Part shown: positions 14,244 to 29,704 of the stretch, in pieces
Position numbering within the stretch: the stretch's first letter is position 1
How the letters are laid out: every line of letters begins with the position of its first letter
Assembly (NCBI GenBank): GCA_017461635.1
Contig: JAFTXK010000099.1
Coordinates: 1 to 42,368 of the forward strand
DNA length: 42,368 nt
Origin: Clostridia bacterium
GTDB taxonomy: Bacteria > Bacillota > Clostridia > Oscillospirales > CAG-272
Direction of reading: 5' to 3'
The notes under the pieces: model-generated
Database searches by the model: none
Told to the model about the DNA's origin: nothing
Seen by the model: the letters and a program-made list of their open reading frames with translations, nothing else
Made by a program: the position numbers and the translations under genes

Positions 14244-17200
14244 ATGAAAAGATCAATATTAAACCTTTGCGTGATAATTACGCTCATTGCAGCCATGCTG
14301 TCGAGCTTCGCGCTGGTTTCATTTGCTTCTGAAGCAAATGAAATTGCGAAGAATGAATATGGTTATGTTTCAGACGGTCTTGTTGCATATTACGGCGAGG
14401 GCGGAGATACCGAAAATAAGCTCTGGAAGGATCTTTCGGGAAATAATAACGATTTTTCCGTAACCCTTAACACTGCAAACTATTTTGATGCCGAAGGCGG
14501 CGGACTTAAGGTTGGCTCAACCCAGCATTATCTCCCTGAGGCTGTTTGCAATGTTCTTTTGGGCGAAAGCTTCACTATTGAGCTTCATATCAGCGATTTT
14601 GTTGATACAGATGAAACCTACAATAGATTTGTCCATTACGGCGAAGCATTTTCTCTTTTCAGAAATGACAGCTCGGACACGCTTTATTTAAAGAATGGAT
14701 ATTATCCTTCTGATGACGAAAGCTTGGTTCAGGGAGAGCGTCCTTCTATCACAAAAGCTGATAAGAATCTTCAGAACGATCTTGTCACTCTTACCTATGA
14801 TGCAGACGGAAAGACCGCCTTCTATCTGAACGGCGAGCTTATAACGAGTGTATCTACCTCCGGTAAGGCAATTGGTCCTAAGAGCACCGATAAGCTTTGC
14901 ATCGGTGAGGGATGCGATGCATTTTACCGTTCGATGCGCTTCTATAACCGCGTGCTTACCGAGGAGGAGATCAAGTCAAATGTAGCAAATGACGGCTTAA
15001 CTCCCTCTCCCTCATATATTTCGGTAGCACAGCCCGTAACAAATGTTATCGGCGATATCTCCGCTGTAAGAGAGATCAACAGCGCAGAGGAGCTTGCCGA
15101 AGTTATAGCTGCCGAAAATAAACCCTCCACAGCGATCTTTACCGTAGATTCTTCTTTGAAAGTCCTTGACGATAGCGGAGCTGAGATATCCAAAGTTCTT
15201 GATGTCATTGCGGCAATGGAATATAAGATAATACCCGTTTTCAGAGCCGAGGATATTGCCACAGCAGAAGCTGTTGCGGCATGCCTTGAAGAGAATTTCA
15301 CCGATGCCTTTATTATGAGTTCTGTTCCCGCAGCTTTGAATGCGGCTCGCACTGTAGCTCCCAATGTCGGCGGTGTTATTGACTATACGAATACATATGC
15401 GCTTAAAGTATCTCTCACAGAGGCAGATTGCTCGGCGATCCGCAGTGAAATATATTCAAATAACGCAACCGTTGCAATGCTTCCTGCCGCACTCTGCGAT
15501 ACCGAAACTGTTCATACACTGCTTTGGAATCAGGTAGGCGTTTGGGCAAGACTTTCCGATGCTCCTACAGAGACCGAAAGGTTTGCGGCTATAAAATCAG
15601 GTACTTTCGGCGTTGTTTCCGATGATACCGAAGGCATTCTTGCCACAGCATCGTCGTTGCCCGAAAATACTATTACCCGCCGCCCCATAAATCTGGTTCA
15701 CAGAGGCGCAACCGATTCCGAAACTATCGTAAAGAATACATATGAAAGCGTTGTTTATGCCTATGAGCAGGGCGCAAAGTATATTGAATTCGATATACAT
15801 ATGACAGCACCCGAGGAGGGTGGAGATGACAGCACGAGAAAGATAGTTCTCCATCATGATGCCAATACATCCGCCTCCAATAGTATTGACGGAACTACAG
15901 TTTATGATATCTCCGAAACAGCTTGGTCTGTTCTCTATGAAAATATGATCTTCAATTATACAGATAGTGCAGGAAATATTACCGGAAGCTATAAATTATC
16001 GGATTTTGAGGACGTATGCAAATATTTTGCAGGCGAGGTTGACGGCACTCCAAAAACAGACTGCATGCTCTTTGTTGAAGCAAAAGCGGGCAATGATGTT
16101 ATGATGATCGAAATGCTCTATGATCTCATTAAAGACTATGGACTTGAGGATCAGTTCGCTCTTCTCACATTCGAAACCTCTTATATAAAGAAGCTTCGTG
16201 AGATTGCTCCCCATATTCCTACAACTCTGCTGGTTTCGAATTCCAATATCGTCGATTCCAATGCAGATATGACCCTTCAGGGCGTAAGAGAGCTGGTCAT
16301 GCCCATCAATTCTATCTATGAGCCCGCACAGTATAATTCGGGCGACAATCTCGGCAAGGTGAGCGCAAGAGCTCTTCTTAAGCGCGGTATTTTCCTTTAT
16401 GTTTGGTCGAGCGGAAGCGAGATCGATTGCACAGCAAAGGGCTATAACGGAATCACCTCCGATAATCATTGGCTTCTCAATGCCTTCCCCTGGGATATAA
16501 CCGTTAGCGGCATCAGAGAGGATGGGCTCGTAAGCGCAGGCGGAGCACTTGATATTTCCGCTTACGGCGAGACATATGATGAGAGCGTAGCTCTTGACGG
16601 CATATCCGTAAAGATACTTGAAGGCGCAGACCTTGTAAAAGCTCTTGACGGAAGAAGGATCACCTTCGGAGAAAACACGGGCAATGTAACTTTTGCCGCT
16701 GAATATTCATTCCAGAATAGCGGATATACCTTCACAGTATATTCCGATCCCGTAACTGTCGAGATTACAGATCAGGTCTTCTTTGACGGTGCTGTAAAGA
16801 CCGAGGGCTTTGCTATTCGTATGGAGGAATATAACGGTCTCAGAGGCTTATTCAGCTTCGATACCAATAAGAATGCTGCCTTTATAAGACAGGGATATGA
16901 GCTCATCGAATATGGCGCAATAGCCGTTTCGGAAGAGGTATATAAGGCAAACGGAAATACCGTAACCCTTGACCCCGAAACCTTTGAGCTTACCTGTGTA
17001 GGATATAAAGCCCCCGTAAGGATCGGCGATAAATATCAGAATAAGACCCTTGGAACTAAAGACGGTATCGAATCCTACTGTCTTGCAATAACAAATTTTG
17101 AAAAGCATTTTAATGATAATGTATATTTCTGCGCATATTCCGTTTATAAAGATCCGAATGGCGAACCGGTTATAACTCTGAAGGATTACGGCATTGAGGG

Positions 17201-18230
17201 ATATAATACCGTAAATCTCTATCAGCTCACACTCGATATGTATGTAAACGGTGCTATCAATGCATACAATACCGATGTGGCTGCCGTATGGAATACGCTT
17301 CTTACAGGCGTTGTAACTCTCTCCGAGGGTACAGACTATGTCGAATCCGAGACCTTTGGCGATACCTTTATTATGAAGGAATTTGCTGCATGTGGAACGG
17401 CGGCTGTTGCCGGAATAACCCTGACTGTTGTCAATGATCCGAAAAATGATGAGTGGATTCTTATCTATAGGGGCGAGGGTAATATCCCCGGCACAGGCTG
17501 GGATATCAAGCATCAGCTTGCAAGCGAGCGCGCCGAAGCTTATGCGCTTACCAATCCTATTCTTACCGCAGAATCCGATTCCAAGATAACGACTGTTATT
17601 ATCGATTACGGAATCACGGGAATTTCCGGAGCTTACTCATTTGCTCAGCTTAATTTTGATACCCTGGTATATTCGGATACCTTTAAGACAACGAAGGGCA
17701 GTATGTATTATCATTGCCCGAATATCGTTACAGCTTATAAGGCAATGGCTGACGGCGAGATGCATACCGTAGAGGAAAGACTGGCGGATTATTCTCATGT
17801 TGATAATCTTGAAACAGGTGCTATGTTTGTTAATGTATCTGCACCTCCTTCCAAGATACATTTGCCTTCAACCCTTACAGCTATTGCAAATAATTTCCTC
17901 AAGGGTGCCTGGAGTACTGCCAGAGTTACGAAGATATGGTGCGGTGATACAGTAGAGCCCGAGGCAGGCGTGATCGACCTTACCGGTGCGAATATCGTAT
18001 CTATCGGTGCATATGCATTCCCATATCTTGTAAATATCAATACCATAAAGCTTCCCGATAGTTGCACCACTATCGATTCAACGGTATTTACCGATGCAGA
18101 TAGAGGTACTACCCCGATCAAAACCGTTATGCAGAATACCTATAACGCTTCCATAGCGGAATTCTGCACGACTAACGGTTATACCTATTGTAACCTCAGC
18201 GGCACTGTTCATACCGCTCCCGCTGAATAA
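14244..18230 (+). CDS. Secreted paralog (1328 aa): signal peptide, 1 LamG-like domain, degenerate + intact GDPD-like domains, shared module, LRR-like tail
   Basis: AAGGAG RBS; signal peptide ending VSFA; GDPD motifs LVHRG, IEFDI, VLHHD, VEAK and GITSD; collinear with the upstream gene. Confidence 0.78.
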   Translation: MKRSILNLCVIITLIAAMLSSFALVSFASEANEIAKNEYGYVSDGLVAYYGEGGDTENKLWKDLSGNNNDFSVTLNTANYFDAEGGGLKVGSTQHYLPEAVCNVLLGESFTIELHISDFVDTDETYNRFVHYGEAFSLFRNDSSDTLYLKNGYYPSDDESLVQGERPSITKADKNLQNDLVTLTYDADGKTAFYLNGELITSVSTSGKAIGPKSTDKLCIGEGCDAFYRSMRFYNRVLTEEEIKSNVANDGLTPSPSYISVAQPVTNVIGDISAVREINSAEELAEVIAAENKPSTAIFTVDSSLKVLDDSGAEISKVLDVIAAMEYKIIPVFRAEDIATAEAVAACLEENFTDAFIMSSVPAALNAARTVAPNVGGVIDYTNTYALKVSLTEADCSAIRSEIYSNNATVAMLPAALCDTETVHTLLWNQVGVWARLSDAPTETERFAAIKSGTFGVVSDDTEGILATASSLPENTITRRPINLVHRGATDSETIVKNTYESVVYAYEQGAKYIEFDIHMTAPEEGGDDSTRKIVLHHDANTSASNSIDGTTVYDISETAWSVLYENMIFNYTDSAGNITGSYKLSDFEDVCKYFAGEVDGTPKTDCMLFVEAKAGNDVMMIEMLYDLIKDYGLEDQFALLTFETSYIKKLREIAPHIPTTLLVSNSNIVDSNADMTLQGVRELVMPINSIYEPAQYNSGDNLGKVSARALLKRGIFLYVWSSGSEIDCTAKGYNGITSDNHWLLNAFPWDITVSGIREDGLVSAGGALDISAYGETYDESVALDGISVKILEGADLVKALDGRRITFGENTGNVTFAAEYSFQNSGYTFTVYSDPVTVEITDQVFFDGAVKTEGFAIRMEEYNGLRGLFSFDTNKNAAFIRQGYELIEYGAIAVSEEVYKANGNTVTLDPETFELTCVGYKAPVRIGDKYQNKTLGTKDGIESYCLAITNFEKHFNDNVYFCAYSVYKDPNGEPVITLKDYGIEGYNTVNLYQLTLDMYVNGAINAYNTDVAAVWNTLLTGVVTLSEGTDYVESETFGDTFIMKEFAACGTAAVAGITLTVVNDPKNDEWILIYRGEGNIPGTGWDIKHQLASERAEAYALTNPILTAESDSKITTVIIDYGITGISGAYSFAQLNFDTLVYSDTFKTTKGSMYYHCPNIVTAYKAMADGEMHTVEERLADYSHVDNLETGAMFVNVSAPPSKIHLPSTLTAIANNFLKGAWSTARVTKIWCGDTVEPEAGVIDLTGANIVSIGAYAFPYLVNINTIKLPDSCTTIDSTVFTDADRGTTPIKTVMQNTYNASIAEFCTTNGYTYCNLSGTVHTAPAE

Positions 18231-19032: not shown

Positions 19033-20871
19033 ATGTGCGGATTTGCGGGTTTTTCCGGCAGACTTGAAAATAAAAAAGAAATAATAAACGCAATGATGGA
19101 TCGCATAGTCCACCGCGGACCCGATATGGCGGGAGATTTTACCGATGAAGATATGGCTCTGGGCTTCAGAAGGCTTAGCATCATCGATCTCTCCGAGGAT
19201 GGCGCACAGCCCATGTATAATGAGGACGGCAGTATCGTTATAGTTTTTAACGGCGAGATATATAATTTTGCCGATCTGCGTGCAGATCTCATATCAAAAG
19301 GGCATATATTCAAATGTCATGCAGATACAGAGGTGCTGGTCCACGGTTATGAGGAATACGGTGAAAAAATAGTGGAAAAGCTCCGCGGAATGTTTGCTTT
19401 TGTTATCTGGGACAGAAATAAAAAGACCCTTTTCGGAGCAAGAGATCATTTCGGTATAAAGCCCTTTTATTACGGCAATACCTCGGATGGCTCTCTTATC
19501 TTCGGCTCGGAGATAAAGAGCTTCCTCGAGCATCCGAATTTTGTAAAAGCGGTCAATAAAAGAGCCCTGCGCCCTTATCTTACCTTCCAGTATTCCTCTA
19601 TGGAGGAGACCTTCTTTGAGGGAGTAAAAAAGCTTCCTCCTGCGCATTATTTCACATGGAACGCAGAGCAGGGAATGAAGATAGAGCGTTATTGGGATAT
19701 TGATTTTACAGAGGGACCGGGATCCTTTGAGCATTATCGCGATGAACTGGATAAAACCGTGCGCGAATCTGTCGCGGCGCATAGAATAAGCGACGTCAGG
19801 GTAGGCTCATTCCTTTCGGGCGGCGTTGATTCCAGCTATATCACCGCGGCACTGATGCCCGATGAGACCTTCTCTGTTGGCTTTGCCTATGATAAATTCA
19901 ATGAAACCGATGAGGCAGGCGAGCTTTCAAAAATTCTGGGTATTAAAAATTTCAAAAAGATCATCAATGCCGATGAATGCTTCGAGCATTTTGAAGAGAT
20001 CCAGTATCATATGGATGAGCCTCAGTCAAATCCCTCGTCAGTACCGCTCTATTTCCTTGCAAGGCTGGCAAAGGAGCATGTAACGGTCGTTCTCTCGGGA
20101 GAGGGTGCAGACGAGATATATGCCGGCTATGAATGGTATGATGAAACGCCCATGATGCGTAAATATAAGAAGCTGCCTCGGTTCATCCGAGCTGCGGCGG
20201 CATCGGTTGCGGGGAAGCTGCCATATTTTAAAGGACACGATTTCATAATAAAGGGAAGCTCCCGCCCCGAGGACTATTTTATCGGACAGGCTCTTGTATT
20301 CCCCGAAAAGGAAGCACTCTCGGTGCTTCGTGACGAATATAAAAACGCACCGTCCGTTAAGGATATCACAGCGCCCATCTATGCGAGAGTGAAAGGGAAG
20401 AGCGAGCTCGTAAAAAAACAGTATCTTGATCTGAATCTTTGGCTTCCGGGTGATATACTTCTCAAAGCTGATAAGATGAGCATGTCAAGCTCCCTTGAGC
20501 TTCGCGTGCCCTTCCTTGATAAGGTCGTTATGAAGCAGGCGCAGGAGATCCCAAGCCGCTTTAAGATAAACGAAAAGAACACAAAGTACGTCCTGCGTGA
20601 AGCATCGCATAAGACATTGCCCGATGAATGGGCAAACCGTACCAAAAAAGGATTTCCCGTTCCGATACGCTATTGGCTTCGTGAAGAGAAGTATTATAAT
20701 ATAGTAAAAGAATATTTCACAGCCGATTATGCGTCAGAGTTCTTTGAGTGTGATGCAATAATGAAGCTTCTTGACGATCATAAGGCGGGCAAGGCGCAGA
20801 ATCAGCGCAAGATCTGGACGGTATTCACCTTCCTTGTCTGGTACAAAAAATTCTTCATTGAGGAAAAATGA
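19033..20871 (+). CDS. asnB: Asparagine synthase (glutamine-hydrolysing), probably AsnH-like D-Asp amidotransferase
   Basis: N-terminal MCG, HRGPD, RRLSIID, FNGEIYN, FLSGGVDSS, LSGEGADE and LRVPFLD motifs; adjacent to a D-Asp ligase. Confidence 0.93.
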   Translation: MCGFAGFSGRLENKKEIINAMMDRIVHRGPDMAGDFTDEDMALGFRRLSIIDLSEDGAQPMYNEDGSIVIVFNGEIYNFADLRADLISKGHIFKCHADTEVLVHGYEEYGEKIVEKLRGMFAFVIWDRNKKTLFGARDHFGIKPFYYGNTSDGSLIFGSEIKSFLEHPNFVKAVNKRALRPYLTFQYSSMEETFFEGVKKLPPAHYFTWNAEQGMKIERYWDIDFTEGPGSFEHYRDELDKTVRESVAAHRISDVRVGSFLSGGVDSSYITAALMPDETFSVGFAYDKFNETDEAGELSKILGIKNFKKIINADECFEHFEEIQYHMDEPQSNPSSVPLYFLARLAKEHVTVVLSGEGADEIYAGYEWYDETPMMRKYKKLPRFIRAAAASVAGKLPYFKGHDFIIKGSSRPEDYFIGQALVFPEKEALSVLRDEYKNAPSVKDITAPIYARVKGKSELVKKQYLDLNLWLPGDILLKADKMSMSSSLELRVPFLDKVVMKQAQEIPSRFKINEKNTKYVLREASHKTLPDEWANRTKKGFPVPIRYWLREEKYYNIVKEYFTADYASEFFECDAIMKLLDDHKAGKAQNQRKIWTVFTFLVWYKKFFIEEK

Positions 20872-20872
20872 A

Positions 20873-22102
20873 ATGACAGAAATAGAAATAGATCTGATCC
20901 CCGTCCTTCTGGGAGGAGACCTTAACAGCTATAATGTAGCCCGTGCATTCCATGAAAGATACGGCATAAAGACCCATGTTTTCGGCAGATATCCCATAGG
21001 TCCTACAAAGGATTCGAGGATAGTTGATTTCCATGTTATCCCAAAGCTTGATACCGATGATATCATGGTTGCCGAAATGCAGAATTTTGCCGAAAAGCAC
21101 AGCGGAGCGGCACTGCTTCTCCTTGGATGCACCGATGATTATGCGGCAATGATAATCCGCAATAAAAACCGCCTTGAGGATAAATATATCTGCCCTTATA
21201 TTGAAGAAGAGCTGATGGATAAGCTGGTCAGTAAAGCAGTTTTCTATGAGATGTGCGAAAAATACGGCATACCTTATCCGAAAACAAAGATACTGACAGC
21301 AGATTTTACCGAAAGCGATTTTACTGAAGAAAATCTCGGCTTTACTTATCCTATAATCGTCAAGCCTTCCAGCAGTATTGCCTACTGGAAGCATCCCTTT
21401 GAGGGCATGAAGAAGGTCTATACCGCAAAGAATCCCGAGGAAGCGGCAAAGATCGTCAAAGAGATCTATTCCGCAGGCTATCCCGATAAAATGATCCTGC
21501 AGGATATGATCCCCGGAGACGACTCCAATATGTATGTTCTCACAGCTTATTCGGATAAGGATAATCAGGTCAAGATGATGTGCCTCGGTCATGTTCTTCT
21601 TGAGGAGCATACTCCAAAGGGACTTGGCAACCATGCCGCTATCATCACCGAATATAAGCCCGAGCTTACCGAGCGATTCAGAGAAATGCTTAATGATATT
21701 TCTTACCGCGGCTTCTCTAATTTTGATATCAAATACGATCCCCGTGATGGCTCGATGAGAGCCTTCGAGATAAATCTCCGCCAGGGAAGAAGTAATTTCT
21801 ATATAACTGCGGCGGGAATAAACCTCGCAGAGATACTCGTCCGTGATAATTTCCTCGTCGAAACTCTCGAATATACCGAGTGTAAGGAAAGCCGCCTCTG
21901 GCATACTATCCCCTTCGGTGTCGTAAAAAAATATGTCCATGATAAGCCTTCTCTTGAAAAAGCCAAAAAGCTCAGAAGCGAAGGCAGATCAAAGACATCC
22001 CTCTGGTATGCATATGACCTTCTAAGAAGCCCTAAGAGACTTATCTGGGTCGCCGAGCATATGCGCCGCCAGTACGGAAAATATAAAAAATACTGCAAAT
22101 AA
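20873..22102 (+). CDS. ATP-grasp D-aspartate ligase (Aslfm/YxbA-like)
   Basis: PVLLGGDLNSYNVARAFHE, LQDMIPGDDS, GHVLLEEH, LGNHAAI and FSNFDIKYD...FEINLRQGRS resemble enterococcal/lactococcal D-Asp ligases; start moved to ATG 20873, right after the asnB stop. Confidence 0.82.
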   Translation: MTEIEIDLIPVLLGGDLNSYNVARAFHERYGIKTHVFGRYPIGPTKDSRIVDFHVIPKLDTDDIMVAEMQNFAEKHSGAALLLLGCTDDYAAMIIRNKNRLEDKYICPYIEEELMDKLVSKAVFYEMCEKYGIPYPKTKILTADFTESDFTEENLGFTYPIIVKPSSSIAYWKHPFEGMKKVYTAKNPEEAAKIVKEIYSAGYPDKMILQDMIPGDDSNMYVLTAYSDKDNQVKMMCLGHVLLEEHTPKGLGNHAAIITEYKPELTERFREMLNDISYRGFSNFDIKYDPRDGSMRAFEINLRQGRSNFYITAAGINLAEILVRDNFLVETLEYTECKESRLWHTIPFGVVKKYVHDKPSLEKAKKLRSEGRSKTSLWYAYDLLRSPKRLIWVAEHMRRQYGKYKKYCK

Positions 22103-22126
22103 ATAAAAAATTATGGAGGCGAACTC

Positions 22127-23614
22127 GTGAAACTCTGGGAGCTTTTGAAAAATGTTAACATAAATGCCCCTCTTTCGGGAAAGCTCGGCGAAATCGAGAT
22201 AAGCGCAGTCTGCTGTGATTCCCGCAAAGCAATGCCGGGTTCTGTTTTCGTCTGCATAAGCGGTGCCGTTTCTGATGGACATGATCATGCTCCGTCGGCA
22301 TATGAAAAGGGATGCCGTATCTTTGTGGCAGAAAGAGAGCTGTCTCTGCCAAAGGACGCATTTGTTCTGATAGCGGATAATACGAGGATCGCTCTTGCCG
22401 AAATGTCTCAGACCTTTTTCGGAAACCCTTCAAAGGAGCTGAAGGTCATCGGAATTACGGGCACAAAGGGAAAGACAACAACTGCGCATCTTATCTATCA
22501 TGTGCTGAATACCTCGGGGATAAAAGCAGGCTATATCGGTACGAACGGCATTATGTTCGACGGTAAATTCTATGAGACCGTCAATACCACCCCCGAAAGC
22601 TATGACCTTGCGCAGTATATGCGCAAAATGCTGGATTCTGAGGTTAAATATCTGGTTCTCGAAGTATCCTCACAGGCAATCTATATGGATAGGATACGCG
22701 GAATGGAATTTGAGACCTGTGTTTTCACCAATCTTTCTCCCGATCATATCGGCGGAAATGAGCATCCTACCTTTGAGCATTACCGCGATTGCAAAGCAAG
22801 GCTCTTTTCCGAATATAAGCCTAAGATCGCAATATTTAATGCCGATGATGAGGCTTCGGATTATATGATGAGTAATTGCCCCGCGCCTAAGTTCAGCTAT
22901 TCCATAAAGGGAAATGGACATTTTCTTGCAGAGAAGCTTGAATATTACCGCGATGGCGGCAGACTGGGCGTAAAATTTGATATGAAGGCAGGAGGTGAGC
23001 TGTCGGCGAAGGTGGATCTGCCTCTTCCGGGCGATTTCAATGCTTCAAATGCACTTGCCGCGGCGGCTGTTTGCATAAGCGCCGGAGTTTCCTTTGATAA
23101 GATCGTTTCGGCACTATCAACAGCCTCTCTCAGAGGGCGCTTTGAGATAGTCGATGCGCTTCCTTATGCAACCTTCATAATAGATTATGCTCATAACGGC
23201 GTGAGCCTTAGAAGCGTTCTTACTACTCTTCGTGCCTATGAGCCCAAAAGACTGATCTGCGTATTTGGCTCTGTGGGCGGCAGGACAAAACTGCGCCGCG
23301 CTGAGCTCGGAAAGGTTGCGGGCGAGCTCTGCGATCTATGCATAATCACCTCGGATAACCCGGATAATGAACCGCCTGAGCAGATAATCGATGAGATAGC
23401 GGCGGCATTCGGAGAGGGAAGCTGTCCCTATGTAAAGATCCCGAGCCGCAGAGAAGCAGTGCTCTATGCCGTCAGAAATGCACGCAAGGATGATATAATT
23501 CTCTTTGCGGGCAAAGGTCATGAGGAATACCAGCTGATATGCGGAAAGCGAGAATATTTCTGCGAGCGTGAAACGATAATCGAAGGCGCGTTCGGAATGT
23601 TACTTGGCAGGTGA
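22127..23614 (+). CDS. murE: UDP-MurNAc-dipeptide:diamino-acid ligase MurE, non-DNPR type
   Basis: GITGTKGKTTT, NTTPES, LEVSSQ, DYAHN, SDNPDNE and AGKGHE motifs; GGAGG RBS with GTG start. Confidence 0.93.
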   Translation: MKLWELLKNVNINAPLSGKLGEIEISAVCCDSRKAMPGSVFVCISGAVSDGHDHAPSAYEKGCRIFVAERELSLPKDAFVLIADNTRIALAEMSQTFFGNPSKELKVIGITGTKGKTTTAHLIYHVLNTSGIKAGYIGTNGIMFDGKFYETVNTTPESYDLAQYMRKMLDSEVKYLVLEVSSQAIYMDRIRGMEFETCVFTNLSPDHIGGNEHPTFEHYRDCKARLFSEYKPKIAIFNADDEASDYMMSNCPAPKFSYSIKGNGHFLAEKLEYYRDGGRLGVKFDMKAGGELSAKVDLPLPGDFNASNALAAAAVCISAGVSFDKIVSALSTASLRGRFEIVDALPYATFIIDYAHNGVSLRSVLTTLRAYEPKRLICVFGSVGGRTKLRRAELGKVAGELCDLCIITSDNPDNEPPEQIIDEIAAAFGEGSCPYVKIPSRREAVLYAVRNARKDDIILFAGKGHEEYQLICGKREYFCERETIIEGAFGMLLGR

Positions 23615-23617
23615 GAT

Positions 23618-24331
23618 ATGGCATTATATAAATTTGCGGACAGAGTTTTTGAGCTAAAGAATAAATATAAATATACCGATAAGATCTGTGCCGATTATGC
23701 AATAGATGAAGCAACTCCCGATTATGTTATAGAGGTCACAGCGGATGAGATAATGAAGGAAAGAGTAGATGATAGCTCTGCTTTTCCGCCTCCTTATCTC
23801 GAATCTCTTGCGATATACAGAAAGATCGCAGAATGTCTTGCCGAGGAGGGTTGCTTTCTGATGCATGCCGCAGTCATCGAATACCGCGGTAAGGCGTATG
23901 CCTTCACAGCGAGGAGCGGCACAGGCAAAACCACTCATGTCTCTCTTTGGGAAAAGGCATTCGGAGAGGATGTAAGAATAATCAACGGCGATAAGCCCCT
24001 TGTTCGAAGGATAATAAAGGATGGAAAAAGCGAATTTACCGTTTACGGTACACCCTGGTGCGGTAAAGAACGTAAACATATAAATGCAAGCGCGCCTCTT
24101 GCAGGCTTTTGTCTGCTGGAACGCTCGGCGGAAAATTTCATAACCCCCGCAGGAGAGGAAGCAGTTCCTTTTCTTCTGGGACAAATGCTCTTAAAAAAGA
24201 ATATTCGCTATATGGGGGCTCTGATGGCATTTGCCGATGCTCTTGTGACGAGTGTTCCCATCTACCGTCTCGGAGTAAATACCGATATTTCGGCGGCTGA
24301 GGTCGCCCGTAACGGACTTTGCGGAAAATAA
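23618..24331 (+). CDS. HPr kinase/PEPCK-related P-loop kinase
   Basis: LMHAAVI...AFTARSGTGKTTH, IINGDKP and YGTPWCGK motifs. Confidence 0.75.
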   Translation: MALYKFADRVFELKNKYKYTDKICADYAIDEATPDYVIEVTADEIMKERVDDSSAFPPPYLESLAIYRKIAECLAEEGCFLMHAAVIEYRGKAYAFTARSGTGKTTHVSLWEKAFGEDVRIINGDKPLVRRIIKDGKSEFTVYGTPWCGKERKHINASAPLAGFCLLERSAENFITPAGEEAVPFLLGQMLLKKNIRYMGALMAFADALVTSVPIYRLGVNTDISAAEVARNGLCGK

Positions 24332-24351
24332 AATCGGAGGATATATAATAT

Positions 24352-24630
24352 ATGAAGATCAGTGAAGGATTCGTAGTTCAGAAGATAGGGGAAAGCTTCT
24401 ATGCAGTTCCCGTAAATAAAAATCCTGCCATCGGAAATGGCATGATAAAGCTGAATGAAAGTGCTTATCTTATGTGGAAGAAGATCGAAGAGGGCCTTGA
24501 TCTCGATCAGATAGCTGAGGCTCTTACAGAAGAATATAATGTGGATAAGGAGACTGCTCTGAGGGATGTTAAAGCCTTTGCGGGGCAGCTCGGAAAGGTC
24601 GGAATCCTTGAAGGAACAAATGAAGCTTGA
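24352..24630 (+). CDS. PqqD-family RiPP recognition element (RRE)
   Basis: 92 aa; MIKLNESAYLMWKKI...IAEALTEEYNVD...ALRDVKAFAGQLGKVGIL; GGAGG RBS. Confidence 0.88.
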   Translation: MKISEGFVVQKIGESFYAVPVNKNPAIGNGMIKLNESAYLMWKKIEEGLDLDQIAEALTEEYNVDKETALRDVKAFAGQLGKVGILEGTNEA

Positions 24631-25054
24631 GGAAGCGCTTCCTCTGATCGAAGCTGCGTTTTCTGCAGGAGTATCATTTCGATTTTTTCCAAGGGGAACC
24701 AGCATGCTCCCCATGCTCAGACAAGGGATCGATTCTGTTAGCATCGTTTCTCCTAAGCTGAGAGAGCCGAAGGTGGGAGAGGTAATTCTCTATCGCAGAA
24801 AAAACGGAGCATTTGTTCTCCATCGTGCGATCGGCAGGGAAAAGGACGGCAGCTTTATCTGCCGCGGTGATAATCAGGGGATTCCCGAGCGCGGAGTTGC
24901 TCAGGATAGCATCATAGGAGTCCTTGAGGGCTATTATAAGGGCGAAGCTTGGATCTCAGCTGATGATTTTGAATATAAGAAGTATGTAAAGAAACGAATG
25001 AAGACGGGATGGCTAAGGAATCTTAAAGGAATCTTGAGAAAAATAATAAAATAA
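24620..25054 (+). CDS. S24/S26-family (signal peptidase-like) serine peptidase without a membrane anchor
   Basis: GTSMLPML, FVLHR and CRGDN motifs; ATG 24620 with AAGGA RBS overlaps the end of the PqqD gene. Confidence 0.82.
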   Translation: MKLEEALPLIEAAFSAGVSFRFFPRGTSMLPMLRQGIDSVSIVSPKLREPKVGEVILYRRKNGAFVLHRAIGREKDGSFICRGDNQGIPERGVAQDSIIGVLEGYYKGEAWISADDFEYKKYVKKRMKTGWLRNLKGILRKIIK

Positions 25055-28092: not shown

Positions 28093-28860
28093 TCAGTTGT
28101 TTTCGCCTGAATCAGCATTTCCGCCGAGCTTAGCATACTGCTTCTGCTCATAGGAATCATTTGCCGAGTAATTTCCGTAGGGCTTGTCATAATAGCGTTT
28201 TCCAAGCATGTAAGATTTATAGGAATAATGTGCGGATTCAGCCATATTGAGTACGGCACCTATAATGTGGCAGCCGCTTCTTGTAAGCTGAGCCTTGATG
28301 CTCTGAAGCGTACGGTAGCTGACATGGTTTGCGGCAACATTGAGAATAACGCCGTCGCATTGCGCCGCTATTACCGCCGCATCGATAACGAGCCCCAGAG
28401 GAGGAGTATCGATAATTATGTAGTCAAATACAGAACGGTAATATTCGAGCATTTCGGAAAAACGCTTGCTTCCGATAAGCTCAACAGGATTTGGCGGATA
28501 CGGGCCTGCAAAGGCAATATAGAAATCTGGATACTGTGTGCCGTAAACGATCTCATCGCATTCAGCCTGTCCGGAAAGATAATGGCTCAGACCGAGAAGA
28601 TCCTGCTCCTCGATATGCTTTTCCGCAAGAACGGATTTGCGCAGGTCGCTGTCAATGAGAAGAACCTTTTTGCCGGATTCGGCAAGGCTCTTGGAAAGCT
28701 CAAGAGAAACAAAGCTCTTGCCCTCATTCTGAGTGGAGCTGGTAATAGCGATCACCTTGGTATCCGAACCGCTGAAAAGAACATTGGTTCTGAGAGTTTT
28801 AAAGGCCTCTTTGACCTCATAGCGTTCGGGGGTTTTAGTTATTAAATTAACTGTATTCAT
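28093..28860 (-). CDS. cpsD: CpsD/CapB family tyrosine-protein kinase (BY-kinase)
   Basis: EAFKTLRTN, TSSTQNEGKS, LLIDSDLRK and IIIDTPP motifs; Tyr-rich C-terminus. Confidence 0.92.
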   Translation of the reverse strand: MNTVNLITKTPERYEVKEAFKTLRTNVLFSGSDTKVIAITSSTQNEGKSFVSLELSKSLAESGKKVLLIDSDLRKSVLAEKHIEEQDLLGLSHYLSGQAECDEIVYGTQYPDFYIAFAGPYPPNPVELIGSKRFSEMLEYYRSVFDYIIIDTPPLGLVIDAAVIAAQCDGVILNVAANHVSYRTLQSIKAQLTRSGCHIIGAVLNMAESAHYSYKSYMLGKRYYDKPYGNYSANDSYEQKQYAKLGGNADSGENN

Positions 28861-28921: not shown

Positions 28922-29704
28922 TTATTTGCGCGAGGCTTTCTTTTTTGCCGATTTTTTGCTCTTGTTCTTCGGACGTCTCAGCATAGAAATATCGGGAATA
29001 GAACCGAGAACGCATACGCCAAGCGCTTTTTCAATATCTTCTGTGGTTCTGACATTGTCATTGAACATATGAACGAGTACGACTATAGCCGCGGAGATAA
29101 CAACACCTGCGAGAACGGCAAGAATGATGTTAGTGCTCATCACGGGACTGGAGGGGGCAGAGGGGATCTCGCCCAGCTCTTCGATGGTAATATCCTCAAC
29201 ACCCATGATCTCAATAGCCATTTTTCTCGATACCTTTGCAAAGGCATCAACGAGAAGCTTGGCTCTCACTGGATCTTTATCCGTAACGGTAATATCAACG
29301 AAACGTGTCTCATTATTATCAAGAGAAATCTGACCGCCGAGGGTCTTGTAATTAGCGGGATCCTCGCCTACTGTTGTGAGGACCTGGCGATATACCTCAT
29401 TGCTCTTGATAAGGATCTTGAAGTCATCCTTAAGTGTAACGGCACTGTTAAGGTCGTTTATCGAAGTTGCCATTGAGCTTTGCCTGTTAAGTATGTAAAC
29501 TCTGGCAGTGGAGCGGTACATGGGAGTTGCGAGCTCAGCCGTATAGAAATAAGCTCCTACGGCGGCGATGAGACCGACCAGTATAAGTATCCATAATTTG
29601 CTCATGATAACGGCGATAAGCTCACCGATAGTAACTTCGTATTTGCTTTTTTCTTCAGTCTCAAGTCCGGACCCGAGAATAAACTTGTTGTTTTCAGCGT
29701 TCAC
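28922..29704 (-). CDS. cpsC: CpsC/Wzz-type polysaccharide co-polymerase / BY-kinase activator
   Basis: Two TM helices; TPMYRSTARVYI, PSAPSSP and NVRTTEDIEKALGVCVLGSIP. Confidence 0.88.
   Translation of the reverse strand: MNAENNKFILGSGLETEEKSKYEVTIGELIAVIMSKLWILILVGLIAAVGAYFYTAELATPMYRSTARVYILNRQSSMATSINDLNSAVTLKDDFKILIKSNEVYRQVLTTVGEDPANYKTLGGQISLDNNETRFVDITVTDKDPVRAKLLVDAFAKVSRKMAIEIMGVEDITIEELGEIPSAPSSPVMSTNIILAVLAGVVISAAIVVLVHMFNDNVRTTEDIEKALGVCVLGSIPDISMLRRPKNKSKKSAKKKASRK

Follow-up and report, generated by a model that had tools for sequence, protein, structure and literature searches.

Linear polyphosphorylated peptides (LPPs) belong to the RiPPs, peptides that ribosomes make and that are modified after translation, and have been known since May 2026, from Bacilli (Popov et al., Nat Commun 2026, PMC13381572). 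In the main text of that study, the lppA-K-B-S-D-N cluster of Paenibacillus alginolyticus DSM5050 is described as encoding a precursor, an HprK-like kinase, a discrete RiPP recognition element (RRE), an archaeal-type peptidase resembling signal peptidase I (SpI), an MsbA-like exporter and an uncharacterised nucleoside triphosphate (NTP) transferase, with no cyclase among the products. As told there, LppK in Bacillus subtilis placed one to four phosphates onto Ser3 of the core, LppS (S29/H68/D93) cut the leader only if LppB presented it, LppN had no visible effect in B. subtilis, and the LPP clusters of Bacilli were often found within capsule loci (PMC13381572). Gut Clostridia are not mentioned in the main text of the same paper. 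Here, we analysed three adjacent genes, for a kinase, a PqqD-family RRE and an S26-type peptidase, in a bacterium of a gut Clostridia lineage (CAG-272); the window, contig JAFTXK010000099.1, is a complete contig of 42,368 bp (C78 in our numbering) from a metagenome-assembled genome of 2.13 Mb that is 84.6% complete and has 44% GC. We consider it likely that this trio is the K, B and S core of a split clostridial LPP-type pathway for a linear phosphorylated RiPP.

At the level of protein families, the clostridial set has its parts list in common with the LPP pathway as the main text of PMC13381572 presents it, including a YxxP precursor in which a Ser close to the leader/core junction is conserved. 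The K-B-S gene order is that of the window, the A-K order recurs in five relatives, and a cyclase and a B2 protease are missing from the published pathway as they are from the genome assembled here, incomplete as it is. The arrangement differs in that the window clusters K, B and S only, behind murE, with A and N on other contigs and D uncertain, and the peptides differ in that the FETxxS block reported for LPP stands against D-[IV]-I-T-T-S in Clostridia, where the precursors are short, end in an acidic tail and space their YxxP motif otherwise. A reading of this DNA from its sequence alone (hereafter the sequence-only reading) had described such trios as recurring and unexplained; they now have counterparts in LppK, LppB and LppS, as far as the published main text describes these (PMC13381572). 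Its proposal of a RiPP-type set that would recognise, cleave and phosphorylate a substrate draws support from the folds, the conserved residues and this match.

Lasso peptide clusters of the paeninodin/pseudomycoidin type share with the clostridial set an HprK-like kinase that targets a Ser of the precursor, an RRE of the B1 type, a nucleotidyltransferase of the PF14907 type, an ATP-binding cassette (ABC) exporter and a [Y/W]xxP leader; PadeK is reportedly the kinase and PsmN the nucleotidyltransferase of such clusters. Lasso clusters possess a cyclase and a transglutaminase-like B2 protease, whereas the window and the assembled genome have neither, an SpI-like serine peptidase taking the place of B2, and paeninodin-type leaders typically carry W where the clostridial peptides carry Y or F. 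A search of the genome, within its 84.6% completeness, returned neither a lasso B2 protease (PF13471) nor a further Asn-synthase-like cyclase or PqqD protein, and we rejected the lasso reading on the lack of a PF13471 B2 and of a lasso cyclase. The asnB gene upstream of the trio was likewise rejected as a hidden lasso cyclase, scoring 248 versus 525 with NF033535 and well over the TIGR01536 cut-off, with its GATase domain intact (Table 1). Lasso clusters with an HPr kinase, PqqD and a nucleotidyltransferase have been described from rumen bacteria, with no mention of S24/S26 peptidases in the accessible text of that report (PMC7533575). The SynChlorMet system also touches the locus, as the window kinase falls in the Pfam family named after its ScmC and matches TIGR04249 weakly. 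We take the SynChlorMet cassette to pair ScmC with a PqqD-type protein as well. That reading was rejected too, because TIGR04249 reached 20.4 bits against a cut-off of 125 and no ScmE or ScmF radical-SAM maturase passed its cut-off in the assembled genome (TIGR04250 and TIGR04251, best 43.8 and 33.3 bits versus 400).

The kinase is recognised by its fold and its motifs. The sequences SGTGK[TS]TH (Walker A), NGDKP and GTPWCGKE are invariant across 24 homologues, and the AlphaFold2 (AF2) model (predicted local distance difference test, pLDDT, 93.6) has HprK/P (1kkm_A, E 2.9e-6) as its top fold in the PDB, followed by PEP carboxykinase. A Pfam library search of the window proteins gave no match for the kinase, the assignment to PF27840 (Pfam 38.1, named ScmC) being one precomputed on its homologues, and the kinase profile run against PDB sequences returned P-loop noise only (E ≥ 0.29). 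The family comprises at least 581 species records.

Using a profile built from 12 homologues of the RRE, we obtained matches to TbiB1 (2.3e-11), TfuB1 (3.4e-8), PbaB1 (4e-7) and LppB (9x8z_B, 8.7e-6), with PqqD itself far behind these lasso and LPP B1 proteins at 0.015. Upon alignment to 9x8z_B, whose chain numbering is offset by 18 from that of the paper, residues N35, Y62, D72 and F76 of the window RRE fall on N33, Y60, D70 and F74 of LppB. In the main text of the LPP study, these four are given the roles of fixing the kink at the Pro of the leader, lining the pocket for the Tyr, forming a hydrogen bond with the Tyr and flanking the Pro on both sides (PMC13381572). Judged from its matches, the PqqD-family protein is best taken for a discrete RRE of the lasso/LPP type in which the residues predicted to hold YxxP are kept.

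For the peptidase, two start codons come into question, ATG 24620, which overlaps the RRE gene by 11 nt, and ATG 24566; the alignment of 20 sequences prefers the former, from which we number. Ser28 (in GTSMLP), His68 (LHR) and Asp84 (GDN) do not vary across the 20 homologues aligned, and the protein has no hydrophobic segment, its 19-residue Kyte-Doolittle mean peaking at 1.13, so the Ser, His and GDN motifs and the missing transmembrane (TM) segment noted in the sequence-only reading are borne out. In the AF2 model (pLDDT 94.4), a helix stands at the N terminus and a long amphipathic one at the C terminus; among PDB folds, the model resembles human SEC11C most (7p2q_A, 2.9e-4), followed by bacterial signal peptidase I and LexA/UmuD. 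The SEC11C fold agrees with the match of the TIGR02228 model sigpep_I_arch (1.7e-8, below the model's cut-off) and with His, not Lys, as the base. Fold and Ser/His(/Asp) catalytic residues are those of the archaeal/endoplasmic-reticulum-type signal peptidases I (SipW, SEC11), a class to which SipW of Bacillus and SEC11 of eukaryotes belong and which is presumably MEROPS S26B. Housekeeping type I signal peptidases have a membrane anchor, whereas the window peptidase is without one, and a housekeeping reading was rejected on this ground and on its low hydropathy maximum. Given its genetic link with an RRE and a kinase, the protein would act as a cytoplasmic leader peptidase and not in secretion. 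More than 7,000 protein clusters matched the peptidase profile, some of which may lie outside such cassettes. The sequence-only reading had set an S26 peptidase apart from the transglutaminase-like leader proteases of lasso clusters; S26-type leader peptidases are now known, in the form of LppS as the published main text presents it (PMC13381572).

A precursor gene is missing from the window but not from the genome. With a hidden Markov model (HMM) of the peptide family described below, we found no precursor-like open reading frame (ORF) in the gaps of the trio or in the whole window (no match at E ≤ 1), the stretches after the genes for its giant proteins and its SLH protein included; the term precursor-less, used in the sequence-only reading, holds for the window and fails for the genome, which has one peptide gene on contig C63. 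The family emerged when small intergenic ORFs were clustered de novo: it had 13 members at 9 loci, many of them encoded just upstream of the kinase, and the clostridial consensus reads xKxxYExPxxEIIxFExEDIITTS, followed by a variable tail. When the precursor HMM was run against the six-frame ORFs of the genome (at least 18 codons), it returned one match (E 2.5e-9; next best 0.42), a candidate precursor of 36 amino acids (aa) whose gene is preceded at 8 nt by a AAAGGAGGA Shine-Dalgarno sequence, has a GC-rich terminator-like hairpin after its stop and starts 128 nt behind the gene for a 1151-aa BspA-type leucine-rich-repeat (LRR) protein. The family counts 45 unique peptides of 31-54 aa (median 39), with [YF]xxP in 34 of the 45 and W at that place in none, a near-invariant Ser at median position 23, and tails that are net negative in 41 of 41 delimited cases (median charge -4); a conserved leader followed by a variable core is the usual pattern of RiPP precursors.

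The distribution of the peptide follows that of the kinase. Among 121 relatives, the kinase is present in 62 genomes, including 16 of 16 from the same genus, and the peptide family in 33 (13 of 16 in the genus), all of which are kinase-positive (33/62, compared with 0 of 59 kinase-negative genomes). Outside the genus, 19 of 45 genomes with the kinase also have the peptide, compared with 0 of 59 without the kinase, where the Fisher p of 8e-9 overstates the case because related genomes are not independent. Five genomes (G036, G040, G091, G097 and G110) show the published A-K order, the peptide gene being some 100-730 bp upstream of the kinase; among the 80 loci from other species, at least 13 have the peptide gene no more than 10 kb from the kinase, often directly upstream. 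A distant peptide had been put forward as one possible substrate by the sequence-only reading, and the C63 peptide, a single strong match of a family found only in kinase-positive genomes, is a plausible candidate for it. The predicted complex of RRE, peptidase and C63 peptide scored 0.67/0.64/0.65, with 0.02 and 0.02 for controls in which the partner was replaced, and 0.68, as high, for the control with a replaced peptidase, a pattern that gives the prediction no weight on binding either way.

The nucleotidyltransferase family PF14907 and an MsbA-like ABC exporter are both missing from the window. PF14907 occurs once in the genome, in trans on contig C138 amid housekeeping genes, and among the 121 relatives it is found in 68, with 54 of 62 kinase-positive and 14 of 59 kinase-negative genomes holding it (15 of 16 in the genus); the nucleotidyltransferase search that the sequence-only reading had suggested has thereby yielded a gene. 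For the exporter, a gene on contig C114 is a weak candidate, as it is the best-scoring of many ABC exporters in this genome (443 bits, the others at most 368).

To see the cassette in other genomes, we took 80 kinase loci from other species and called partners within 6 kb of the kinase with HMMs built from clusters. The whole trio is present in 38 of the 80, which is well beyond chance, and about 23 of these 38 also have the ABC exporter (ABC_membrane/ABC_tran), the PF14907 (NTP_transf_5) nucleotidyltransferase or both: 14 loci have the trio only, 10 the trio and the exporter, 5 the trio and PF14907, and 9 all five genes. The remaining loci hold the kinase alone (22), the kinase with S26 (8), the kinase with the RRE (7) or other combinations (5). 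PF14907 adjoins the kinase in 15 of the 80, and an ABC exporter lies within 6 kb of it in 23, so that the gene-neighbourhood check proposed in the sequence-only reading did bring up a nucleotidyltransferase and an ABC transporter as companions of the trio in relatives. Partners are also found fused, the kinase to S26 in one case (L071:4195-5346) and S26 to PF14907 in three (L025:1143-2690, L037:1068-2561 and L054:10909-12462), and in a class-level search the open frames around S26 matches measured 370-385 and about 520 aa, lengths similar to those of the fusions. In that search of 401 genomes from the class to which the L071 genome belongs, the ones listed being of at most 2.5 Mb, an S26-like profile scored in 114 of 399, and no locus of the Paenibacillus type was recognised. 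In Ruminococcaceae bacterium FB2012, a radical-SAM gene (L070:7324-8634, + strand) stands directly upstream of an RRE-nucleotidyltransferase-kinase-S26-ABC cassette, and the tails of two precursor-like peptides (L070:731-850, - strand, and L070:20614-20711, + strand) contain Cys, suggestive of an additional cross-linking step there.

Beside the relatedness of the genomes compared, several points weigh against the assignment to an LPP-type pathway. The window RRE does not stand nearer to LppB than to the B1 proteins of lasso clusters, LppB (9x8z_B) being weakly matched (single-sequence E 0.25, profile 8.7e-6) and ranking below TbiB1, TfuB1 and PbaB1. The D-[IV]-I-T-T-S block of the clostridial peptides is spaced differently from the published LPP leader, and a regular expression for that leader (YxxPxVLxHQxIxFETxxS) found no genuine match in the 80 loci and the window, its two hits falling within a PqqD gene and an ORF of 24 codons, respectively; the precursor profile run against PDB chains, aimed at the LppA leader in 9x8z, gave 0 matches. 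Of the kinase-positive relatives, 29 of 62 are without a peptide match, the 22 loci with a kinase alone mean that the kinase family is not bound to the cassette, and the exporter candidate on C114 stays below the 481-870 bits of cassette-linked exporters, most of which are in the training set. Furthermore, the variant described here is known from its genes alone, with LppK and LppS likened to their counterparts by their description in the main text of PMC13381572 and only LppB by sequence, and the supplementary tables of the same paper could cover clostridial members or leave them outside the family.

Some of these points would equally suit an active machinery whose substrate is another peptide or a protein tail, the C63-type peptide belonging with surface-protein genes instead. 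The peptide gene lies at most 60 nt behind a long same-strand ORF in 13 of 30 loci from relatives (L116-L145), the C63 gene itself follows its LRR gene, the peptide motif is unlike the published leader, and close to half of the kinase-positive genomes show no peptide. Among 10 upstream ORF fragments scanned, one had LRR_5, one Big_2/InlB-B-repeat, one GDPD, one a weak F5/8-C match and six nothing; in one relative (L138), the gene for a large GDPD-containing protein precedes the precursor gene. We regard such a substrate as unlikely, given that Y/F-x-x-P is found in most of the peptides and the RRE retains the residues that would hold Tyr and Pro, and that the peptide is confined to kinase-positive genomes and is repeatedly a near neighbour of the kinase.

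The LPP-type reading leaves the position behind murE to be accounted for. Comparing relatives, we found murE immediately ahead of the kinase in 12 of 16 further genomes from the same genus and at 0 of 13 loci outside it, and the 80 wider loci contain a single weak murE-like match, 8 kb off, with murE and asnB outside the conserved set. Hence, as murE adjacency is confined to one genus, the attachment to a peptidoglycan operon is a lineage-specific trait and no feature of the system; most likely, the K-B-S core was inserted behind murE in this genus, apart from the other parts of the pathway. The S26 gene is present in 11 of the 16 same-genus genomes and missing from G004, G005, G007, G008 and G009, of which G007, G008 and G009 are also without a precursor match. 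In 14 of 16 loci of the genus, a gene for an SGNH-like protein with a membrane anchor comes after the trio or the RRE, one further locus ending at a contig edge; where the peptidase gene is missing, this gene stands directly after the RRE (four same-genus genomes and L004), and among the 80 wider loci it follows the trio or RRE in one (L004). Judged from this placement, the protein, which has one N-terminal TM segment, appears to be a lineage-specific companion of the trio.

One could see in these losses the decay of a five-gene cassette of which the trio is a remnant without current function, kept by read-through from murE. Exporter, nucleotidyltransferase and precursor are missing from the operon, the peptidase has been lost from 5 of 16 loci in the genus and the precursor match with it in 3 of the 5, and reduced architectures down to the lone kinase are common. 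We hold this to be very unlikely: all three reading frames are unbroken and have invariant residues for catalysis and leader binding, and the genus keeps kinase (16/16), precursor (13/16) and PF14907 (15/16) although they are unlinked, and such genus-wide retention of unlinked parts is expected of a maintained split pathway rather than of decay.

The neighbourhood invites yet another explanation, close to what the sequence-only reading had in mind, in which a cytoplasmic system with no precursor at all acts on the N-termini of envelope proteins, SLH or giant secreted ones, by recognising, cutting and phosphorylating them, or works with cpsC/D and the peptidoglycan genes to prime phospho-glycosylation. 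The trio runs in the same direction as asnB, an ATP-grasp gene and murE and is packed closely with them, no terminator being evident, the window also encodes CpsD- and Wzz-like proteins, an SLH protein and two giant LamG/GDPD/LRR proteins, precursor genes often lie behind those of large surface proteins, and the LPP clusters of Bacilli are placed in capsule loci in the main text of PMC13381572. However, the link to envelope genes, whose absence from relatives the sequence-only reading had itself named as telling against it, is not conserved beyond the genus: murE adjacency vanishes outside it, and of 80 other loci only 5 have Wzz/CpsD-like genes at 7 kb or less from the kinase. A small precursor of cognate appearance tracks the kinase in every one of the 33 peptide-positive genomes, and the substrate of the homologue studied is a small peptide as its main text reports (PMC13381572), which together make action on envelope proteins highly improbable.

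Table 1. Positions of the trio, of other candidate pathway genes in the same genome and of neighbouring genes; positions without a contig name refer to the window.
Feature	Position	Strand	Remark
LppK-like HprK-fold P-loop kinase, 237 aa, PF27840	23618-24331	+	Fold and invariant motifs
LppB-like discrete RRE, PqqD family, 92 aa	24352-24630	+	PF05402, E 2.1e-17
LppS-like soluble archaeal/ER-type signal-peptidase-I homologue, 144 aa (162 aa if ATG 24566)	24620-25054	+	
Candidate precursor, 36 aa, acidic	C63:22689-22799 (= L086:7690-7800)	-	HMM E 2.5e-9; MKNYIAPKMDIVLLDVEDIITTSENDNEVGASDIFG
PF14907 nucleotidyltransferase	C138:19646-20803		
ABC exporter, weak candidate	C114:2762-4489		
asnB	19033-20871	+	TIGR01536, 529 bits (cut-off 267); GATase domain intact
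ATP-grasp gene, 443 aa	~20771-22102	+	Only weak CPSase-like matches
murE (context only)	22127-23614	+	NF001126, 458 bits (cut-off 373)
Membrane-anchored SGNH-like protein, 387 aa	25066-26229	+	Lipase_GDSL_2, 24.1 bits, below cut-off 32.9
CpsD-like tyrosine-kinase ATPase and Wzz/CpsC-like gene	28093-28860, 28922-29704	-	3-4 kb downstream of trio
Giant proteins, 1804 and 1328 aa	8698-14112, 14244-18230	+	Laminin_G_3, GDPD, BspA-type LRR_5
SLH-domain protein, 1149 aa	30083-33532	+	

Within the window, the genes are spaced as the sequence-only reading had it. The murE stop at 23614 and the ATG of the kinase at 23618 leave a gap of 3 nt, the kinase and the RRE gene are 20 nt apart, and the latter overlaps the peptidase start; radC and a uridine-kinase-like gene complete the + strand run that begins with asnB. 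A consensus scan from asnB to radC found no convincing + strand terminator, in keeping with the earlier claim, its three weak + strand matches all being intragenic; in total, 17 terminator-like sites were counted, compared with 12.2 +/- 4.1 in shuffles. The asnB, ATP-grasp and murE genes (19033-23614, + strand) form an apparent operon, a set that we take to resemble the D-Asp ligase/AsnH cross-bridge genes of lactic acid bacteria. The true start of the ATP-grasp gene probably lies further downstream, because the listed TTG start overlaps asnB by 100 nt.

Taking the homologous system as a guide, we can outline how an LPP-type pathway would work here, with the C63 peptide as the presumed substrate. 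The RRE would bind the Y4-x-x-P7 leader of the acidic precursor, and the kinase would phosphorylate Ser23, the last residue of the D-[IV]-[IV]-x-x-S block, possibly several times. The soluble peptidase, acting through Ser28/His68/Asp84 and fed by the RRE, would remove the leader in the cytoplasm near the D-I-I-T-T-S block, where the cut might fall after the Thr preceding x-S, much as LppA is cut between FET and xxS, with a YxxP spacing that differs (Y at -16 in LppA). The nucleotidyltransferase encoded on C138 may add a further modification in trans, and an ABC exporter, for which the C114 gene is the best candidate, would export the short acidic product.

For the window, the outcome is mostly a clarification, in that an unexplained trio belongs to a known pathway type. 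We found no published description of the clostridial variant, although the supplements of PMC13381572 may list such members; as far as we found, the size of the clostridial group, the distinct family of short acidic precursors, the scattering of the genes with the precursor retrieved by co-occurrence, and the murE fusion in one genus are new in print. The scattering matters for genome mining, since cluster-based searches would call many such loci orphan or miss them, and co-occurrence across genomes can recover the link between precursor and enzymes when their genes lie apart. Together, the data point to an LPP-like sister group in gut and rumen Clostridia that is much larger than the LPP group of Bacilli. 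Precursor genes behind surface-protein genes and enzyme genes behind murE offer hints about function. If the peptide genes are often transcribed with those of large LRR/BspA, Ig-like and GDPD surface proteins, and the maturation genes of this genus with murE, clostridial LPP-like peptides might even be components of the envelope instead of secreted antibiotics; short, strongly acidic, polyphosphorylated and perhaps bearing a further nucleotidyl or glycosyl modification, such a peptide from the ribosome would serve as a teichoic-acid-like anionic element or as a partner in displaying the surface proteins on the wall, a notion that we put forward as a distinctly long shot.

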